NCBI GenBank assembly: GCA_963807635.1
Contig: CAWEDJ010000055.1
Location: forward strand, 1 to 52,625
Source: an uncultured cyanobacterium
GTDB lineage: Bacteria; Cyanobacteriota; Cyanobacteriia; Cyanobacteriales; Microcystaceae
Direction: 5' to 3'
DNA: 52,625 bases
This document shows positions 1,451 to 10,638 of the stretch, piece by piece. The notes below the pieces were generated by a model that was not told the DNA's origin, did no database searches, and saw only the letters and a program-made list of their open reading frames with translations. The translations under genes were made by a program, and so were the position numbers. Each line of letters opens with the position of its first letter. Within the stretch, counting starts at the first letter, position 1.

Positions 1451-2220
1451 TTAGGTTGGTCTGATGGGGACTTGGTTTTGCTGGAGGTAGGTTTTAACTT
1501 CCGCAATGCTTAACTGACCAAAATGCAACAAAGAGGCCAACAGGGCCGCTTCGGCTTTACCTTCTGTGAGAGCTTGATAAATATGTTCACAATTGCCTGC
1601 ACCACCAGAAGCAATGACGGGAATTTCTACTTGATCGGCGATCGCCTGGTTAGGGGTAAATCATAGCCCGCCTGGGTTCCGTCCGCATCCATACTGGTGA
1701 CCAGTAGTTCTCCTGCTCCCCGTTGCGCGAGTTCCCTCGCCCAGGCGATCGCATCAATGCCCGTATTTTCCCGACCGCCTCGTACATACACATCCCAGCC
1801 TGAATTTTGCGGATCATTCCGTTTTCTGGCATCGATCGCCACCACAATGCAGGAAGACCCAAAGCGATCGCTGGCTTGATTAATCAAATCAGGATTACGA
1901 ACGGCGGCAGAATTAATACTGACCTTATCGGCTCCTGCCCGTAACAAATTTTTAATATTTTCTAAGGATTGAATGCCACCGCCAACCGTCAGGGGAATAA
2001 AAACTTCTTCAGCCGTGCGATAAACCACATCAATCATGGTGTCCCGTCCTTCGTGGGTGGCAGTAATATCGAGAAACACCAACTCATCCGCCCCCGCCTC
2101 GTTATAAATCCGCGCTAATTCCACAGGATCGCCCGCATCCTTGAGATCGACAAAATTCACCCCTTTCACGACTCGGCCAGCATTCACATCCAAACAAGGC
2201 AAAATTCTTTTGGCTAACAT
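1451..2220 (-). CDS. hisF: Imidazole glycerol phosphate synthase cyclase subunit (frameshift ~1640)
   Basis: [31 protein letters not shown]-terminal [10 protein letters not shown]...LLASLLHFG continues in another frame to a stop at 1451. Confidence 0.95.
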
Positions 2221-2356
2221 AACAAGTTTTTTAAACGTTGGTCAATTTAAACGTAGGATTACAGCAATTTCTCTCAAATTTATCCACGAAAAGCGTGTTA
2301 AATTCAGATTGAATATAACATTAAATCGCCCGCTCCCTAAATCCTTCAATCTCTCA

Positions 2357-3780
2357 ATGACAGATAACTCTCCCAATCCTTTTTTATCTCTTCCCTACGA
2401 ACCAGCCTTAGAAAATTTAGGGAATGATTACTTTGATGCCGTCACTGCCGCCGACTTTCCCCAGCAAATCCTCCGCTTCCGTAATGATGCTTTATTACCT
2501 AAACTTAATTTAGAAAGCCAAGCGGTAACAAATGAGCATTTTATCGAGGCTTTTGGTAAATTTGAGAGCGTGACTCCCCTGTTGGCTCTTCGCTATCATG
2601 GCTATCAATTTGGAGAATATAACCCCTATTTGGGCGATGGTAGGGGTTTTTTATATGGTCAGGTGAGGGGAACTGATGGACAACTCTACGATTTTGGCAC
2701 CAAAGGATCGGGAAGAACGCCCTATTCTCGTAGTGCCGATGGAAGGTTAACGTTAAAAGGTGGTGTGAGAGAAGTTTTAGCCGCAGAAGCGTTGCATTCA
2801 TTAGGGGTAAACACTTCTCGTTGTTTGAGTTTAATTGAAACAGGGGAAGGACTCTGGCGCGGGGATGAACCGTCTCCTACGCGATCGTCGGTGATGATTC
2901 GGTTTAGCCGATCGCATATTCGGTTTGGAACTTTTGAACGGTTGTACTATATCAAACGCCCTGATCTGATTGAAAAATTATTAGATCATGTGATTGAGGT
3001 TTATTATCCCGAAGTGACGGGTCAGAATCCAGAGCGTTATCTTCGGTTTTATCGAGAATTGGTTAGGCGTGTCGCTCAATTGGCGGCTCAATGGATGGCG
3101 GCAGGCTTTTGTCATGGGGTTTTGAATACGGATAATATGTCGATTACGGGGAAAGTTTTGATTATGGCCCCTATGCGTTTATTCCTACCTATAATCCTGG
3201 TTTTACGGCGGCCTATTTCGACTATGGCGGACGATATTGCTATGCCAATCAACCGTTGATTTGTCGTCTGAATTTGGAATTATTGCAAGTTCCCCTAAGT
3301 ATGATTATTCCTGCCTCAGAATTAGATTCAGTATTAGCTAATTTTGAAGAAGATTATCAGAGTTATTATCAAATTTTGATGTTGCAAAAGTTAGGATTAT
3401 CGACCGCAGAGATTCCTAATGACCAAGATTTGCTCCAAAAAACGATTGAATTATTACAGGAAAGTCAGGTTGGTTATCATCAATTTTTTACGGAATTAAC
3501 GGAGAATTTTAATCTAGGCTGGCGAGAAGATCCGACTAAAATTTTAGAAAATACGGATTTAGGAAAGGCAGATTGGACTAGTTGGAAAGTTCTTTATCAT
3601 TTAGTTTTAATGTCTTTGCCAAAAGATGAGTTTATTCAAGTCGGCGATCGCCTAAAAAGTGCTAATCCTAAAACGGCTCTGTTACGTCCTTTGATTGAAG
3701 AGGTTTGGGATGCGATCGCGGATAATGATGATTGGCGATCGTTTGAAGAGTTAGTGCAACGTTTACAAACTAAAAATTAA
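2357..3780 (+). CDS. selO: Protein adenylyltransferase SelO/YdiU (frameshift ~3150)
   Basis: [41 protein letters not shown] motifs; C-terminal part in ORF 3256..3780. Confidence 0.9.
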
Positions 3781-3887: not shown

Positions 3888-5537
3888 GAGCTTGCTGAAA
3901 AAAGCTGAAAGCCTTATAAGAAAAGAGATGAGGGGATTTAGAGAGCAAAAAAAGTGCAAAAAAAAGGTCTAAAATGAGTGAAAAGGCTTGCACCCCTCCC
4001 CTTCCAGAGCATTGAACGATGTACCCCAAAAAAGAATCCGAAAAATCGACTGTTGAAAACTTCAAAATACCAAGTGAGTGGAAGCCAAAAGAAGAAAATC
4101 GTTGGGTAATCATGTCAAAAATAATTCCGTGGGAGGAATTTGAAGAAGAATATGCAAAACAATTTTCAGAAAATAAAGGAGCGACAGCCAAACCATTTAG
4201 GATGGCATTAGGGTCATTAATAATAAAAGAAATATTGAGAATAAGTGACCGAGAAACAGTAGAACAAATAAAAGAAAACCCTTACTTACAATATTTTATA
4301 GGACTAGAAGTATATGAAAATGAGGAGGCATTTGATGCGTCACTGTTAGTACATTTCCGTCAAAGAATAGGAATGGACTTGGTGAATCAAATAAATAAAG
4401 CAATGGTAAAAAAAGAAGAAGAAATATTATCAGAAGTAAAAGAAAAAAGTGAAGGGGAAAATCAGAATAGAGGAAAGCTATTAATAGATGCAACCTGTGC
4501 ACCAGCAGACATCAAATATCCAACAGATATAGGAATCTTGAATGAGGCAAGAGAAAAAACCGAAAAAATAATAGACAACTTGTATAAAAAAACTAAAAAA
4601 AAAGGAAAAAAACCAAGAACCTATAGAATAAGAGCCAGAAAAGATTACTTAAAATTGTCAAAAAAACGCCGTCCGTCGAGAAAAGAAAGGAGAAAGGGCA
4701 TAAAAAAACAAATCCAATATATCAAAAGAAACCTTTCCCATATAGAAAAATTAAGAGAAGATAAAGAGGTCGCAAAATTAAGTAAAAAAGACGAAAAGAT
4801 ACTGTCGATAATACAAAAAGCCTATGAGCAACAAGTAGGAATGTATGAAAATAAAGAAAATAAGGTAGAAAATAGAATTGTGAGTTTGACTCAACCTCAT
4901 GTTCGTCCCATTGTTAGAGGAAAAGCGGGAACGCCAGTAGAGTTTGGTGCAAAACTATCAGCAAGTTATGTGAATGGATATCTTTATTTATACCGATTAA
5001 GTTGGGATAATTATAATGAATCAGGCGACTTCAAAGGACAAATAGAAGAGTTTAAACGTGAGACAGGCTACTATCCCCAGTCTGTTCATGCTGATGCAAT
5101 CTATCGCACAAGGGAAAATCGCGCTTTTTGTAAGGAGAAGGGAATTCGATTGAGTGGCCCACCCTTGGGAAGACGACCCACAAATATTAGTCCAGAAAAA
5201 AAGAAAGAAGCTCTTCAAGATGAAAGAGACCGTAATGCTATTGAAGGCAAATTTGGTCAAGCAAAGAGACGATTTAGCCTCAATCGAGTTATGACAAAAC
5301 TTCCTGATACCTCTGAAACCGCTATTGCTATCACCTTTTTAGTCATCAATCTTTTTGCCCTGCTTCGGCAGGTTTTACGTTTTTTTTGTCTTTTTCGGAA
5401 GAAGAGCTTATTTTTCTGCCCTCTTATTAGCCCAGCTTATGCTTTGTGTTGACAATTCATTTAACCCTTATGTTTTACTCGCCTTAAATTCATAAATTAA
5501 TCCCCTCTTCCTGTTTTTTGACTTTTTCAGCAAGCCC
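3888..5537 (+). mobile_element. IS5-family insertion sequence, apparently complete
   Basis: Terminal inverted repeats GAGCTTGCTGAAAAAAG (3888) and CTTTTTCAGCAAGCCC (to 5537); flanking TAAATA duplication at 3882-3887 and 5538-5543. Confidence 0.9.
4019..5452 (+). CDS. IS5-family DDE transposase
   Basis: ENPYLQYFIG, IDATCAPADI, IVRGKAGTPVEFGAK, ADAIY, RNAIEGKFGQAKRRF motifs. Confidence 0.92.
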   Translation: MYPKKESEKSTVENFKIPSEWKPKEENRWVIMSKIIPWEEFEEEYAKQFSENKGATAKPFRMALGSLIIKEILRISDRETVEQIKENPYLQYFIGLEVYENEEAFDASLLVHFRQRIGMDLVNQINKAMVKKEEEILSEVKEKSEGENQNRGKLLIDATCAPADIKYPTDIGILNEAREKTEKIIDNLYKKTKKKGKKPRTYRIRARKDYLKLSKKRRPSRKERRKGIKKQIQYIKRNLSHIEKLREDKEVAKLSKKDEKILSIIQKAYEQQVGMYENKENKVENRIVSLTQPHVRPIVRGKAGTPVEFGAKLSASYVNGYLYLYRLSWDNYNESGDFKGQIEEFKRETGYYPQSVHADAIYRTRENRAFCKEKGIRLSGPPLGRRPTNISPEKKKEALQDERDRNAIEGKFGQAKRRFSLNRVMTKLPDTSETAIAITFLVINLFALLRQVLRFFCLFRKKSLFFCPLISPAYALC

Positions 5538-5552
5538 TAAATACTTATTTTT

Positions 5553-5768
5553 TTACTTTACCAATAAATCCTGAATTTTATTTTGATTATCTTTGGTAAT
5601 AGTTATTAAAAAGCGGAGGGCTTGATTAACGGATTCTGCACTGGTAAAAATTTCGGCAACGTCCTCATCTAATTTAATAATTGTATCACCAAAGTTTTGG
5701 CGATTGGCTCCCATTTTTCTGACTTTTAATGTTTTTAAGTCGTATTCACTTCTAAGTTCATCTTCCAT
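5553..5768 (-). CDS. BrnA-like antitoxin
   Basis: MEDELRSEYDL...IKLDEDVAEIF...SVNQALR; lies directly downstream of a BrnT-like gene. Confidence 0.7.
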   Translation of the reverse strand: MEDELRSEYDLKTLKVRKMGANRQNFGDTIIKLDEDVAEIFTSAESVNQALRFLITITKDNQNKIQDLLVK

Positions 5769-5772
5769 GATT

Positions 5773-6045
5773 TTAACCTTCTTGATAAGCTTTAAGTTCT
5801 TGTTTTGTAACCTGTCTAGCACTGATAATCCTAATTATATTTCCTCTTTCGGTATAGGAAATTAATAAGATATTACCCACTGATGACGATTCCTATTATA
5901 ATATAACGATTTTCGTTTTCTGAGTGATCGGGGTCATAAAAGTCAACATAGAGAGGGTCATCAAAAACGGTTTGAGATTCCTCAAAGGGAATACCATGCT
6001 TTCACAGTTAGATCGTGCTTTTTGTTGATCCCATTCAAATTTCAT
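5773..6045 (-). pseudogene. BrnT-family toxin with several frameshifts
   Basis: MKFEWDQQKARSN..KHGIPFEESQTVFDDP..DPDHSENENRYIIIG..ISYTER..IRIISAR pieced together across frames. Confidence 0.8.
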
Positions 6046-6140
6046 AGATGGCAAAACTATCAATTTATTTTTAGTCGACATTGTAGCAGGTCGCCGATTA
6101 ATTGATAGTGATTAATTTGAAATGATCGCAATTCCATTTT

Positions 6141-6265: not shown

Positions 6266-9200
6266 TTATTTTTTGAGATACCAGATCAGGAAAGTTAAGG
6301 CTAGGCCAGCGACGAAACAGACAAAAAAATTGGTTTTAAATTTTTGAAAGAAACGAATAGATAGAGAGATTAAAAAAACAATTCCATTAATAATATCCAT
6401 CAGCCAACCAAGCTTCTCTATTGACTGAATTAAAGCATCAGCCCAGTCTTCACCCTGAGCCTCTAATTGTCTTAAGCCACGTTTACTAAATTCTGGAATT
6501 GGAGTCGCATCAACAGGAAGTTTAAGTGATTGCCAAATTTGTACCGCCAAAACTTGATATTGTCGCACTTGGCGAATTTTTCCACTTTTTTGATAAAGAA
6601 CGCTAATATTCCATAAAGATTTTGCTTCTCCATTGCGATCACCAATCTCACGTTGAATCACTAAGGATTGCTGATGAAAATTGAGAGCCTCTTGGTACCT
6701 TCCTAACGAATTATACACATTTACCAGACCGTTTAAAGAATTTGCTTCTCCTTGGCGATCACCGATCTCACGTTTAATCTCTAAGGATTGCTGATAAAAA
6801 TTGAGAGCTTCTTGGTACTGCCCTAACGAATCATTCACAATCCCCAGATTACATAAAGAACTTGCTTCTCCATTACGATCGCCGATCTCACTTTGAATTG
6901 CTAAGGATTGCCGATAAAAATTGAGAGCTTCTTGGTACTTTCCTAACGAATAATAAACATTCCCCAGACCGTGTAAAGAATTTGCTTCTCCTTGGCGATC
7001 GCCGATCTCACATTGAATCGCTAAGGATTGCTGATAAAAATTGAGAACCTTTTCATGCTGTCCTAATGAAGAAAAAACACTTCCCAAGTTGTTTAAAGAA
7101 CGGGCTTCTCCATTGCGCTCGCCGATCTCATGGAAAGTCTTTAAGGACTCTTGATAAAAATTGAGAGCCTCTTGGTACTGTCCTAATAATCTATGCACAA
7201 CCCCCAGATTCATTAAAGAATTTGCTTCTCCTTGGCAATCGCCGATCACCCGTTGAATCTCTAAGGATTGCTGATAAAAATTGAGAGCTTCTTGGTACTG
7301 CCCTAACGAACAATAAACATTCCCCAGACCGTGTAAAGAACTTGCTTCTCCTTGAATACTGCCGATCTGACGTTGAATCTCTAAGGATTGCTGATAAAAA
7401 TTGAGAGCTTCTTGGTACTGCCCTAATAATCTATGCACAACCCCCAGATTTCCTAAAGAATTAGCTTCTCCATTGCGATCGCCGATCTGACGTTGAATCG
7501 CTAATGATTGCTGATAAAAATTGAGAGCCTCTTGGTACTTTCCTAACGAATAATACACATTCCCAAGACCATTTAAAGAACTTGCTTCTCCATCGCGATC
7601 GCCGATCTCAAGTTCAATCTCTAAAGATTGCTGATGAAAATTGAGAGCTTCTTGGTACTTTCCTAACGAATTATACAAACACCCCAGATTTCCTAAAGAA
7701 TTAGCTTCTCCTTTAATATCGCCGATCTCACGTTTAATCTCTAAAGATTGCTGATAAAAATTGAGAGCCTCTTGGTACTTTCCTAACAAATTATACACAT
7801 TCCCCAGATTCATTAAAGCTTTTGCTTCTTCGTTGCGATTGCTGATCTCGCGTTGAATCTCTAAAGATTGCTGATAAAGATTGAGAGCCTCTTCGTATTT
7901 TCCTAACGAAATATACACATTCCCCAGATTGCCTAAAGAAGCTGCTTCTCCTTGAATATCACTGATCTCACGTTGAATCTCTAAGGATTGCTGATGAAAA
8001 TTGAGAGCCTCTTGGTACTGTCCCAACGAATCATACACATTCCCCAGATTGTTACAAACATCTCCATAGTTTTGTCGTTCTTCGGTCGTGGGTTGCCAAT
8101 CTCGATGAAGTTGGCCATAAAGATTAGCTAAGGTTGGGTAATGCCCCCGCCTTGTAAAAAAATTGTGGCAGATCAATACCGTACTAAGAGCATCTCGATA
8201 ACGCCCTAATTGACACTGGTGATAAAAAGTTTCCTCGTACTCCGCAAATGCCGATAAAGGTGTGTCATTGGCAAATTCTATCTGAAGATGCTTCCAAAAA
8301 TAAATCATGGCTTGCTCATGGGCTGTCGTTAAATCCGCCGTTCGTGCTTTCACAAATTCCCGCAAACGGGGCTGAAACCGAAACTCCCCTGGACTCAGAT
8401 ATTGCAAAATAGACCGCCGCTCTAAATCCTCCAAAATCTCCATCGTCACCACTGCATCAGGTAACAACGCCTGGGCAAGCTCCAGCCCAAACGCCCCGCG
8501 CAACACCGACAACTGCGCCAATAACAAACGTTGCGTCTCCGTTAGACGGTCTAAACTCCACTGCAAAACCTGCTCAACCGTTAACTTTTCGCCACGATGG
8601 GAACCCACCAACTGCTGCCAACCTTCCAAAGACTGCAAAAAACGCTCACCTGGCCGAAAAGACACCCGCAACCAACCTGCTATCAACGACAACGCCAAGG
8701 GATTGCCCTGTACCTGCTCCGATGCCCGTTCCCGATTTTCCTGACTATCCTCCACTTCCAACGCCGCCAATAACGCCGCACCTTCAATATTCGTTAAACC
8801 TTGATCGAGCAGTTGCCAACGCGATCGCAGAAAACCCGTATAACGGGAAGGATATTCCCGACTCGCCAACAACAGCACACTTTCACTGCCAATATCCTGA
8901 AAACCCTGCCAAAACTGCTCATAACCACTCAGCCAGGCTCCCTCTGGGGTTAACACCGACTCCAAATTATCAATGGCCAACAAATAACGCCCCTGCTGAA
9001 GTAACCGCAATAAACGGGGAATGAGGTCTTTTTCCTCCATTTTTTCCACCTGTTCAGGCAAAACCCCAAATTCCTGTAAAGCCCTCGCCGCCAACACCGT
9101 CATCGAAGTCTGCGATCGCACATCTGCCCAAAATTTGCCCCTAAAATCGGGAGAATCGGCAAAGACCTGGGCCATCAACGTTGACTTCCCGATGCCGCCT

Positions 9201-9415
9201 TCCCCCCGCAATCCAATCAGAGAAACATTACGATCAGCCATCCAAGCGCGTAATTCCGTCTGTTGCTCCGTCCTACCCTGGAAAAAACGGCGATCGGGTA
9301 AAGGATCACTGTAAATCAGAGAAGTTTGTTGACCATTAATCGTGATGTTATTGGTCTGACCATAGACAGGAGCTTGGTTCAAGACCCCAATTTTTTCGGC
9401 TAATGGTTCGGTCAT
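6266..9415 (-). CDS. NLR-like STAND protein: N-terminal short motif + NB-ARC NTPase + ~12-13 TPR repeats + C-terminal hydrophobic helices
   Basis: FQGRTEQ, Walker A GEGGIGKS, Walker B LLAIDNLE, GNPLAL; 40-aa TPR repeats; likely start is MTEPLAEK at 9415 because the upstream extension is REP-derived. Confidence 0.9.
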   Translation of the reverse strand: MTEPLAEKIGVLNQAPVYGQTNNITINGQQTSLIYSDPLPDRRFFQGRTEQQTELRAWMADRNVSLIGLRGEGGIGKSTLMAQVFADSPDFRGKFWADVRSQTSMTVLAARALQEFGVLPEQVEKMEEKDLIPRLLRLLQQGRYLLAIDNLESVLTPEGAWLSGYEQFWQGFQDIGSESVLLLASREYPSRYTGFLRSRWQLLDQGLTNIEGAALLAALEVEDSQENRERASEQVQGNPLALSLIAGWLRVSFRPGERFLQSLEGWQQLVGSHRGEKLTVEQVLQWSLDRLTETQRLLLAQLSVLRGAFGLELAQALLPDAVVTMEILEDLERRSILQYLSPGEFRFQPRLREFVKARTADLTTAHEQAMIYFWKHLQIEFANDTPLSAFAEYEETFYHQCQLGRYRDALSTVLICHNFFTRRGHYPTLANLYGQLHRDWQPTTEERQNYGDVCNNLGNVYDSLGQYQEALNFHQQSLEIQREISDIQGEAASLGNLGNVYISLGKYEEALNLYQQSLEIQREISNRNEEAKALMNLGNVYNLLGKYQEALNFYQQSLEIKREIGDIKGEANSLGNLGCLYNSLGKYQEALNFHQQSLEIELEIGDRDGEASSLNGLGNVYYSLGKYQEALNFYQQSLAIQRQIGDRNGEANSLGNLGVVHRLLGQYQEALNFYQQSLEIQRQIGSIQGEASSLHGLGNVYCSLGQYQEALNFYQQSLEIQRVIGDCQGEANSLMNLGVVHRLLGQYQEALNFYQESLKTFHEIGERNGEARSLNNLGSVFSSLGQHEKVLNFYQQSLAIQCEIGDRQGEANSLHGLGNVYYSLGKYQEALNFYRQSLAIQSEIGDRNGEASSLCNLGIVNDSLGQYQEALNFYQQSLEIKREIGDRQGEANSLNGLVNVYNSLGRYQEALNFHQQSLVIQREIGDRNGEAKSLWNISVLYQKSGKIRQVRQYQVLAVQIWQSLKLPVDATPIPEFSKRGLRQLEAQGEDWADALIQSIEKLGWLMDIINGIVFLISLSIRFFQKFKTNFFVCFVAGLALTFLIWYLKK
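6590..8075 (-). repeat. Tandem 120-bp repeats encoding TPR units
   Basis: Sequence recurs every 120 nt (e.g. CTAAGGATTGCTGATAAAAATTGAGAGC) at high nucleotide identity, about 12 copies. Confidence 0.95.
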
Positions 9416-9443
9416 TCGTTTACCCAAATTCCGTTTAAATTCC

Positions 9444-9557
9444 GTAGGGGTTTGGTTTCCAAATCCATAAACCATAATGATTACAGACCAAATCCAAAAA
9501 TTCTATAGGGGGTTTTCCAAATCCAGAAACAATAGGACTTGGAGACCAAGCCCCTAC
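9444..9557. repeat. Second GTAG-type REP family, inverted pair
   Basis: GTAGGGGTTTGGTTTCCAAATCC (9444-9466) and GGACTTGGAGACCAAGCCCCTAC (9535-9557); further copies at 14902-14924, 15051-15073 and 43414-43436. Confidence 0.75.
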
Positions 9558-9961
9558 GACAGATTAATGGTGTTAGTTTGATCAATAATCGTTCCTTGAT
9601 TAACCACACCAATTTTTTCAGCTAATTTCGTCATGTTAACCACTGCCCCAGGTTGAGCTTGTACCGCCGTCTGGATTGCCTCGGTTAATTTTCGCAATTC
9701 CTTGTCATTATGTACCAAATTTTCAATTTTTTCAATCAAAGCTTGTTGACCGTAAACAGTTGGTTGCTGTTGGGCTAGTTCAGGTTGTTTGGCCACAACG
9801 GCGATCGCTTCAGCCGTTTTCGGGTCTTTTCGTTGCAAATGGGCTAAAAATTTCTCGACGGAGTTCCAAACGCTTTCTGTGAGTTTTTCCCCCGTTTTCT
9901 CAAAGGCTTTGGTGGCAATTAAAACAGCGATCGCACTGGCGGTTAAAGTTACAGGTTCCAT
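9554..9961 (-). CDS. Small helical Bell/HeLo-like effector with a C-terminal candidate amyloid signalling motif
   Basis: Hydrophobic N-terminal helix MEPVTLTASAIAVLIATKAFEKTGEKL; C-terminal LAEKIGVVNQGTIIDQTNTINLS is homologous to the NLR N-terminus. Confidence 0.75.
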   Translation of the reverse strand: MEPVTLTASAIAVLIATKAFEKTGEKLTESVWNSVEKFLAHLQRKDPKTAEAIAVVAKQPELAQQQPTVYGQQALIEKIENLVHNDKELRKLTEAIQTAVQAQPGAVVNMTKLAEKIGVVNQGTIIDQTNTINLS

Positions 9962-10064: not shown

Positions 10065-10391
10065 TTAAGAAGCCAACTTATAACTAATATAACGATTAAG
10101 ACTCACATTTTCTTCCGCCGCTTCAATCACTAAACGACGGTGTAATTCTGGTGTAACTCTAACTTGAAACTTGCCACTATACTGTCTTTCTGAAATCGGT
10201 TCAGGCAAAAATTCCCCATTCGCTTTCATGTCTTCTACAACAGAGCGAACTAACTCAGTAATACCTTCAAGAGCTTGTAACCGATCCTCATGGAGATAGG
10301 ACAAACTGGGATATTCAGCACAAAGTCCCACATATTCTTGGTCTTCGACTGACCAAATAACCTTATAGACGTAGTGATCGGGATTAATCAT
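10065..10391 (-). CDS. hicB: HicB-family antitoxin
   Basis: WSVEDQEYVGLCAEYPSLS, YSGKFQVRVTPELHRRL..EAAEENVSLNRY. Confidence 0.88.
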   Translation of the reverse strand: MINPDHYVYKVIWSVEDQEYVGLCAEYPSLSYLHEDRLQALEGITELVRSVVEDMKANGEFLPEPISERQYSGKFQVRVTPELHRRLVIEAAEENVSLNRYISYKLAS

Positions 10392-10638
10392 TGCTCTGTG
10401 CCTCTAATTTTTCTATCGCAGATAAAATTTGCTTGACTTGATAGGGTTTCGCTTTGCCGTTTTTATTTTGGATATTAACGCGAGGATCGCCAGCCCAGGG
10501 CGTTTTATAAACACAGTGACTACTTCCTTGTTGTCTGGGTTCACCAAAGTAATGATTACAGACTTTAACTAGGTCTGCAAAACGCACATTTTGGGAGTTC
10601 TGTTGGAACTGGGCGACGAGTTTCGAGATAGACGTCAT
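10384..10638 (-). CDS. hicA: HicA-family toxin
   Basis: VRFADLVKVC..YFGEPRQQGSSH..KAKPYQVKQ; overlaps the hicB start. Confidence 0.85.
   Translation of the reverse strand: MTSISKLVAQFQQNSQNVRFADLVKVCNHYFGEPRQQGSSHCVYKTPWAGDPRVNIQNKNGKAKPYQVKQILSAIEKLEAQSND

Follow-up and report, generated by a model that had tools for sequence, protein, structure and literature searches.

A Bell/BASS5-NLR gene pair in an uncultured cyanobacterium and a candidate UGA-readthrough layout in related Bell loci

The Bell-BASS5 effector and its NLR partner

The window analysed here, a 52,625-nucleotide stretch from an uncultured cyanobacterium of the Microcystaceae (GenBank assembly GCA_963807635.1, contig CAWEDJ010000055.1, positions 1 to 52,625 of the forward strand), carries on its minus strand a gene for a short Bell-domain effector followed by a gene for a NOD-like receptor (NLR)-like protein, and the C-terminus of the effector and the N-terminus of the NLR share a sequence motif (Table 1). 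Realignment without gaps reproduced the identity of 13 of 20 residues that had been proposed for these two termini (effector nucleotides 9625-9566 versus NLR nucleotides 9403-9344). As a chance control, the last 35 residues of the first member were scored against the first 60 residues of the second member for 1771 adjacent same-strand pairs of open reading frames (ORFs) in the window's genome. The window pair scored 67, in tied second place, as compared to a median of 18 and a 99th percentile of 35, and the other five of the six top-scoring pairs resembled split repeat genes or genes with duplicated domains.

Pfam matches on the NLR comprised NB-ARC (E 1e-13) and TPRs alone, in agreement with the original prediction that no other N-terminal domain is present, and a Walker-B-like stretch was located at residue 145. 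The longest ORF of the NLR (6266-9475, minus strand) encodes 1069 residues when counted from its first ATG. The true start is probably the ATG at 9415, which would give a protein of 1049 residues with four residues ahead of the motif, because an ATG 70-71 codons ahead of Walker A was kept in 15/15 listed loci of the clade and the ATG at 9475 was confined to three clade loci bearing a repeat insertion between the genes; a start at 9475 was disfavoured for the latter reason. Both candidate starts lie upstream of the motif, and hence a start downstream of it, raised earlier as a potential objection to the pairing, was not found. The C-terminal hydrophobic segment of the NLR is a probable tail anchor; a hydrophobic, Trp-rich tail is common to most of the clade, so the window NLR may be membrane-anchored. 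The effector has Glu at position 2 and a hydropathy of 1.7 across its first 15 residues. The closest named relatives were Snowella records, at 95% identity. The dispersed repeat between the genes matched the genome in 32 blastn rows, self matches among them, and a terminator-like hairpin lies directly after the Bell stop within this repeat (9416-9553). Promoter and terminator scans gave counts no higher than shuffle level.

By sequence comparison the shared motif is BASS5 of Dyrka et al. (10.1101/2020.01.06.895854; PMC8086366). The README of supplement 1 of PMC8086366 maps class C07 to BASS5, and a hand count matched the effector tail to the C07 entries A0A2T1E3J8 (Table 1) and A0A350YAQ3 (21/35 residues), a comparison made by eye against the published sequences and not with the authors' profile hidden Markov models. 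The window effector is 61% identical over 126 residues to WP_015211565.1, a named plasmid protein whose 35-residue tail is the published Bell-side BASS5 entry K9WPC7. The suggestion that the motif might represent a new family was rejected, as it falls in C07. The C07 match together with the Bell homology indicates that the window pair adds a new member to the known Bell/BASS5-NLR family. Pairs described by Dyrka et al. have the same collinear order of a Bell gene and an NB-ARC/TPR gene, an effector of 120-140 residues and the same placement of the C07 motif at the effector C-terminus and NLR N-terminus; nothing essential differs in the window pair, which adds a probable NLR tail anchor and the intergenic repeat.

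AlphaFold modelled the effector as a helical bundle with a mean pLDDT of 80. A fold search with this model returned unrelated helical chains (best Z 5.2) and no Foldseek match at E 0.001, and sequence and fold searches of the PDB gave no clear match, with no solved Bab structure or other HeLo/MLKL/Babybell-like member standing out, which does not count as evidence for a new fold. Gene order, domains, the C07 match, the helical effector and the Bell homology all bore out the Bell/BASS-NLR layout of the original prediction. Its expectation that the motif should co-occur across homologous pairs also held, with the type of motif switching jointly in both partners; in L011, L019, L202 and L203 a BASS7-type motif was present on effector and NLR alike.

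Table 1. Positions of the features of the gene pair in the window and of the element sites on other contigs of the same genome
Feature	Position	Strand	Remarks
Bell-domain effector, 135 aa	9554..9961	minus	hydrophobic N-terminal helix, Glu2, C-terminal BASS5, stop TAG
BASS5 motif, effector copy, 20-residue core	9566..9625	minus	25/35 tail residues identical to published A0A2T1E3J8 (hand count)
Intergenic stretch, a dispersed genomic repeat	9416..9553	.	missing in close relatives L002 and L017; without readthrough element
NLR-like protein, 1049 aa from probable start 9415	6266..9415	minus	BASS5, NB-ARC, TPR array, C-terminal hydrophobic tail
BASS5 motif, NLR copy (residues 5-24 counted from 9415)	9344..9403	minus	
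Walker A of NB-ARC, intact, residue 71	9179..9205	minus	
Twelve 40-residue TPR repeats, mean pairwise identity 69%	6626..8065, approximate	minus	
Hydrophobic 19-residue C-terminal segment of NLR, mean hydropathy 2.0	6275..6331	minus	present in most NLRs of the clade
Element site	C69:12493	+	Bell-like gene, TGA and hairpin; 302 open in-frame codons
Element site	C105:62954	-	Bell-like gene, TGA and hairpin; 783 open in-frame codons
Element site	C42:31195	+	Bell-like gene, TGA and hairpin; 97 open in-frame codons
Element site	C50:43177	+	Bell-like gene, TGA and hairpin; 926 open in-frame codons

Two layouts of Bell loci and the element behind the stop

On its own, the window pair is one more BASS5 locus. 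A second layout, lying outside the window but inside its genome and NLR clade, was first seen on other contigs of this genome, where two paralogous Bell-BASS5 genes end in a TGA and an NB-ARC/TPR frame with neither a start codon nor a motif copy follows directly. A survey was assembled from 254 loci, in sets of 13, 2, 70 and 90 plus 79 from metagenomes; the sets of 70 and 90 took in most, not all, of the matches and were chosen mainly by E-value and not by layout. Thirty hits were dropped (13 partial, 12 duplicate, four broken and one cut) and 232 Bell genes were left. Layout A was defined as a separate NLR with its own motif copy, as in the window, and layout B as a P-loop ORF that continues in frame after one stop. 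There were 52 A loci, 99 B loci, 12 loci with a separate NLR lacking the motif, 54 without a P-loop ORF, 14 near a contig end and one fusion, counts that are not independent because the loci are related. Layouts A and B are nearly exclusive alternatives. Four of the 99 B loci were misfiled (L135, L158, L197 and L204; three with an early ATG and one an A locus with a frameshift) and were excluded from later counts, from the tree and from the alignment used for the structure.

In layout B, the NLR frame starts right behind the Bell stop, has no motif copy and usually lacks a start codon. Motif-copy scores were ≤29 in B (misfiled L158 excepted) versus ≥36 in A, although the rule for class B itself demands that no strong motif copy with an ATG be present. 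Stops of B loci (n = 99) were TGA in 95 cases and TAG in four, with C at position +4 in 84, as compared to 22 TAG, 21 TAA and nine TGA for A loci (n = 52). No ATG, GTG or TTG was found in 56/72 short-linker B loci ahead of the FxGR-type motif (i.e. the pre-Walker start of the NTPase domain). All 17 published NLR-side BASS5 entries (PMC8086366, supplement 1) are of the KIG subtype; for the other three BASS5 subtypes, layout A was found in 0/42 loci of the survey and the candidate readthrough signal, described below, in 39/42. In five loci (L018, L086, L092, L136 and L151) the junction enters an ORF of 124-156 codons without a Pfam family, behind which a long ORF in a different frame overlaps it. 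In L023, L183, L321 and L215, the TGA junction runs in frame into a membrane helix plus a PsbP-like domain, or into an FGE-sulfatase-like domain, with no NLR; the annotation of L321 begins the second gene behind the membrane helix.

The nucleotides around the layout B stop were conserved. Codon context was analysed for 77 non-redundant B loci and hairpin statistics for 76 sequences. The first codon after the stop was CTA or CTG in 61/77 loci (CTA in 32, CTG in 29), with AAG, ATA, CCA and GTA also seen, and the third was TCG or CCG in 72/77; CTA, CTG, TCG and CCG each account for just 10-12% of the codons of their own amino acid in the window's genome. Codons TTT or TTC preceded the stop in 31/77 B loci versus 28/52 window-type stops. 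A 5-bp hairpin lies 8 nt behind the stop, with nucleotides 9-13 pairing with nucleotides 22-26. Pairing was present in 96% of cells, with 65 double changes; none of 500 shuffles reached as high a value, and slid controls gave 16-42%. The two highest mutual-information pairs among all columns were 12:23 and 10:25, and RNAalifold returned the identical helix. Rfam gave no match across six loci (32 kb). When defined from nucleotides alone, the signal was present at 111 of the 217 stops with room downstream, comprising 108 TGA and three TAG codons (i.e. L166, L168 and L170, with the hairpin element behind TAG). Frames of at least 100 open in-frame codons followed 103/111 stops with the signal versus 16/106 without, and only 1/52 layout A loci carried it. 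A leaky stop context, an in-frame ORF usually lacking its own start and a conserved 3' RNA structure are features of layout B loci. The signal was absent from the Bell stop of the window, which is followed by 16 open codons.

Further searches for the element covered cyanobacteria plus viral contigs. An RNA model found four sites in the window's genome, all on other contigs (Table 1), and no match under E 1 in the window; the C50 site, found via the RNA alone, again consists of a Bell-like gene, a TGA and an NB-ARC/TPR frame. A scan of 61 genomes with this model gives no prevalence because few candidates were scored (~97 per genome) and known sites were missed. A gene-blind DNA pattern produced 17 matches in 251 genomes and none with a reversed control. 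Long in-frame P-loop ORFs followed 16 of the 17, in 15 cases behind a Bell-like ORF (E <1e-6); one match, L276, was taken as chance. With the stop position left open (i.e. TGG, TGC, TAA, TAG and TAC allowed), all 64 matches in 201 genomes of one family had TGA, and each of the 30 that were fetched consisted of a Bell gene and an in-frame P-loop ORF. Five pattern matches in viral contigs had short frames on both sides and were taken as chance. At L265, the element stands behind a protein with a BASS5-like tail that is hydrolase-like by reading of its sequence, with no Pfam match on the scanned part.

A search for longer homologues, in which the best 8000 candidates were scored, returned at least three fusions, namely P0270 (Bell-BASS5-CHAT), P0271 (Bell-BASS5-Trp-NB-ARC-CHAT) and P0272 (Bell-NB-ARC-repeat). 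In the annotated fusion P0271 (WP_322655969.1; protein record alone), a Trp stands exactly at the stop position and is followed by the same linker as in B loci. At L322, whose Bell protein is WP_015211565.1, the RefSeq start of the NLR is an ATT 54 nt behind the TGA. RNA-library contigs from three studies span the TGA of L020 without any letter change; such contigs hold no information on strand, level or rare editing, as rare variants are dropped and a DNA origin is possible. In freshwater RNA-library contigs, the stretch from the Bell start up to the last base ahead of the TGA was also occupied by different sequence (L020:1505-1914), hinting that Bell-BASS alleles are swapped ahead of the same NLR.

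The evolutionary link between the window and layout B was examined with a tree of 133 NB-ARC regions (86 B and 47 A), made by a quick method, without a root and with some long branches. The layouts interleaved on this tree, with 23 changes, at least 13 of them forced by well-supported branches. Layout B was spread over at least 17 coded host families and differing NLR families. The B locus L009 sits among the A-type relatives of the window NLR, and the window effector has 55-57% identity to the Bell genes of three B loci (L088, L180 and L181). Remnants of the linker or hairpin were detected behind the NLR's own motif in the A-type loci L019, L043, L098 and L268, which suggests that some A loci were derived from B by duplication of the motif.

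Candidate readthrough mechanism and rival explanations

Taken together, the window pair is probably a two-gene Bell/BASS5-NLR module, and the layout B of its family probably reflects signal-driven UGA readthrough yielding both Bell-BASS and a Bell-BASS-NLR fusion; we infer that programmed UGA readthrough is the best reading of layout B. By analogy with HET-S/NWD2 and Bab/Agp, the TPR array of the window NLR would sense a ligand and its NB-ARC would oligomerise, whereupon the clustered N-terminal BASS5 copies would nucleate a cross-beta fold and template the tail of Bell. Bell would then free its hydrophobic first helix for attack on the membrane, killing the cell (i.e. abortive infection). In layout B, the UGA, the CUA or CUG codon, the 8-nt spacer and the 5-bp hairpin would lead a fraction of ribosomes to insert an amino acid, probably Trp. 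On the simplest reading, this would be near-cognate UGA readthrough, stimulated by the CUA/CUG context and by the stem at +12, and a single mRNA would give much free Bell-BASS and little Bell-BASS-NLR fusion with identical motifs. In both layouts, which would be interchangeable, BASS would end up ahead of NB-ARC while free Bell-BASS is also made, layout A using two genes for this purpose.

A related system is Bab/Agp of E. coli, for which abortive infection and phage defence have been shown (10.1101/2024.11.07.622273). Bab/Agp also has a Bell-related effector with a MEP-type first helix and is activated via an amyloid motif shared with the adjacent product; it differs in its sensor, which is TPR-GreA/B-PIN and not NB-ARC, and in its motif, BASS11. 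A role of the window pair in programmed death or phage defence is plausible by this analogy (bioRxiv 2024.11.07.622273). In fungal HET-S/NWD2, likened here by architecture and not by sequence homology, the N-terminal motif of the NLR templates the C-terminal motif of the effector. Two-gene and all-in-one architectures both exist there, and layout B would be a third, with both products made from one frame.

Structure at +12 (i.e. an 8-nt spacer) is listed for readthrough in Moloney murine leukaemia virus (MoMLV), Venezuelan equine encephalitis virus (VEEV) and Colorado tick fever virus (CTFV) (PMC13517186). Layout B shares UGA-CUA with the type II signals of alphaviruses and a structure at +12 with the pseudoknot of gammaretroviruses (PMC13517186). 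Among bacterial examples, UGA readthrough amounts to 3-5% for Q-beta, for which no structure was determined, and 1-6% for cat-86 (PMC13517186); effects of stop-codon context on readthrough are also on record (PMC7026636). Layout B differs from the viral signals in that it is found in cellular bacterial genes, has a stem of just 5 bp and a pseudoknot that is not established, and is known from sequence alone. Expression of prfB involves a programmed +1 frameshift at CUU-UGA-C. Like prfB, layout B has a UGA-C behind a mostly pyrimidine-rich codon (TTT/TTC in 31/77); unlike prfB, it needs no frameshift, since its downstream ORF lies in frame 0, and TTT/TTC is equally common before window-type stops (28/52).

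A wider form of this proposal, which we regard as somewhat better than evenly supported, is that a widespread cyanobacterial UGA-readthrough element, stimulated by structure, fuses an amyloid-tailed effector (mostly Bell, once hydrolase-like) to an NLR or membrane sensor, as a third architecture of amyloid signalling in which leakiness sets the ratio of the products. In its boldest form, readthrough itself would be regulated, rising when infection or stress disturbs termination. If true, the readthrough layout would explain the absence of a motif-bearing NLR partner for most of the published BASS5 effector subtypes, and many cyanobacterial NLRs would carry wrong annotated starts, their actual N-terminus being Bell-BASS. 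The element would constitute a compact (~30-nt) bacterial readthrough signal supported by covariation, with hosts including bloom-forming and genetically tractable cyanobacteria, and would correspond, in bacteria, to the viral signals that combine UGA-CUA with a structure at +12. The word 'readthrough' does not occur in the available text of the 2020 preprint of Dyrka et al. (nor do stop codons), PMC8086366, PMC9815663, the Bab preprint or PMC8195603, and the available part of PMC7918605, which treats in-frame stops of bacteria, does not touch on cyanobacteria, NB-ARC or hairpins. Literature searches returned no account of Bell-NLR readthrough, although most subscription papers and the journal version and supplements of the 2020 study lay outside their scope, so that an account in print may exist.

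Several observations weigh against these interpretations. For the amyloid module, AlphaFold modelled residues 106-121 of the effector, which make up half of the motif, as a helix and gave residues 120-134 a pLDDT <50; no family or model of Pfam, NCBIfam or PADLOC names the effector; and the experiments in the available text of the 2020 preprint (10.1101/2020.01.06.895854) cover BASS1 and BASS3 only. For readthrough, two of the four genome sites (C69 and C42) are broken or have no NLR in frame. Among short-linker B loci, 16/72 have a GTG or TTG upstream of FxGR, one being an ATG-free GTG directly behind the stop, and some start codon is present at least 35 codons ahead of the P-loop in 21/23 long-linker B loci. 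Pairing of the loop with nucleotides 36-39 as a second stem was weak (75% paired, with a one-base slide scoring equally); a swap control gave 34 observed versus a mean of 26 (7/1000), and the pseudoknot pattern is suggestive by eye and weak in counts. Additionally, the loci are related and the pattern itself had been derived from this family.

Separate translation of the layout B NLR, through re-initiation or from a CTG, ATT, GTG or TTG start behind the TGA, would also account for a conserved hairpin, which might then serve coupling, pausing or RNA processing, with Bell-BASS triggered in trans by other NLRs. The CTG behind the stop in 29/77 loci, the GTG and TTG codons upstream of FxGR in some loci and the ATT start annotated once in RefSeq point in this direction, yet CTA (32/77), AAG, ATA, CCA and GTA also occupy the first codon. 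Coupling needs no frame 0, yet the frame stays open for 100 or more codons in 103/111 signal loci, and separate translation leaves unexplained the use of TGA in 108/111 cases, the NLRs without a motif and the Trp fusion. It was considered unlikely.

We judged it decidedly unlikely that the shared motif is a non-amyloid interaction segment (e.g. a helix packing on Bell) or a by-product of tandem duplication, in a module regulating something other than cell death. The helix predicted over half of the motif fits such a segment, the linker remnants behind the motif of L019, L043, L098 and L268 are as would be left after duplication, and the junction also enters membrane PsbP-like or FGE-sulfatase-like domains. 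This explanation has to contend with the definition of the motif's family together with tested amyloid motifs (10.1101/2020.01.06.895854), with the requirement of BASS11 of Bab/Agp for beta-structure in defence (10.1101/2024.11.07.622273) and with the joint switching of motif type in both partners.

A very low probability was assigned to layout B being fused Bell-NLR genes silenced by nonsense mutation, either as pseudogenes or in a reversible off state, with the conserved sequence acting as a recombination joint for module swapping. True fusions do exist (P0271, P0272 and L157), some B loci are broken downstream and the RNA-library contigs of L020 join other upstream sequence at the base before the TGA. 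Silenced fusions would not be expected to keep the stop at a constant position, nearly always as TGA, across different NLR families and 17 or more coded host families, nor to leave the downstream frames open for hundreds of codons, nor to give TGA in 64/64 pattern matches with zero sense codons.

Recoding of the TGA by a dedicated route, i.e. as selenocysteine, with a hairpin whose location shortly behind the UGA resembles that of the bacterial selenocysteine insertion sequence (SECIS), or by RNA editing to a sense codon, was regarded as barely credible, given that three signal loci use TAG, that Rfam gave no match, that the L020 TGA was unchanged in RNA-library contigs of three studies (rare variants dropped; possibly DNA) and that neither SelB over cut-off nor tRNA-Sec was found in the genome with the four sites, an absence that is not proven because this genome is 93.7% complete and tRNA-Trp and tRNA-Cys were also not found.

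Neighbourhood of the gene pair

Directly upstream of the Bell gene lies a hicA/hicB-like toxin-antitoxin pair (10065-10638, minus strand; HicB E 3e-16, HicA weak), which would suit a defence neighbourhood. Downstream of the NLR lie two small ORFs (5553-6081, minus strand), the first apparently frameshifted, which resemble a BrnT/BrnA-type pair and have no Pfam match. A DDE transposase with DUF772 is encoded at 4019-5452 on the plus strand. Another gene of the window (2141-3780, plus strand) is split into two ORFs at ~3200-3260, and similar splits were seen on other contigs. These split genes suggest frameshift errors of the assembly, and the break in the NLR frame at the C69 site may be such an error.

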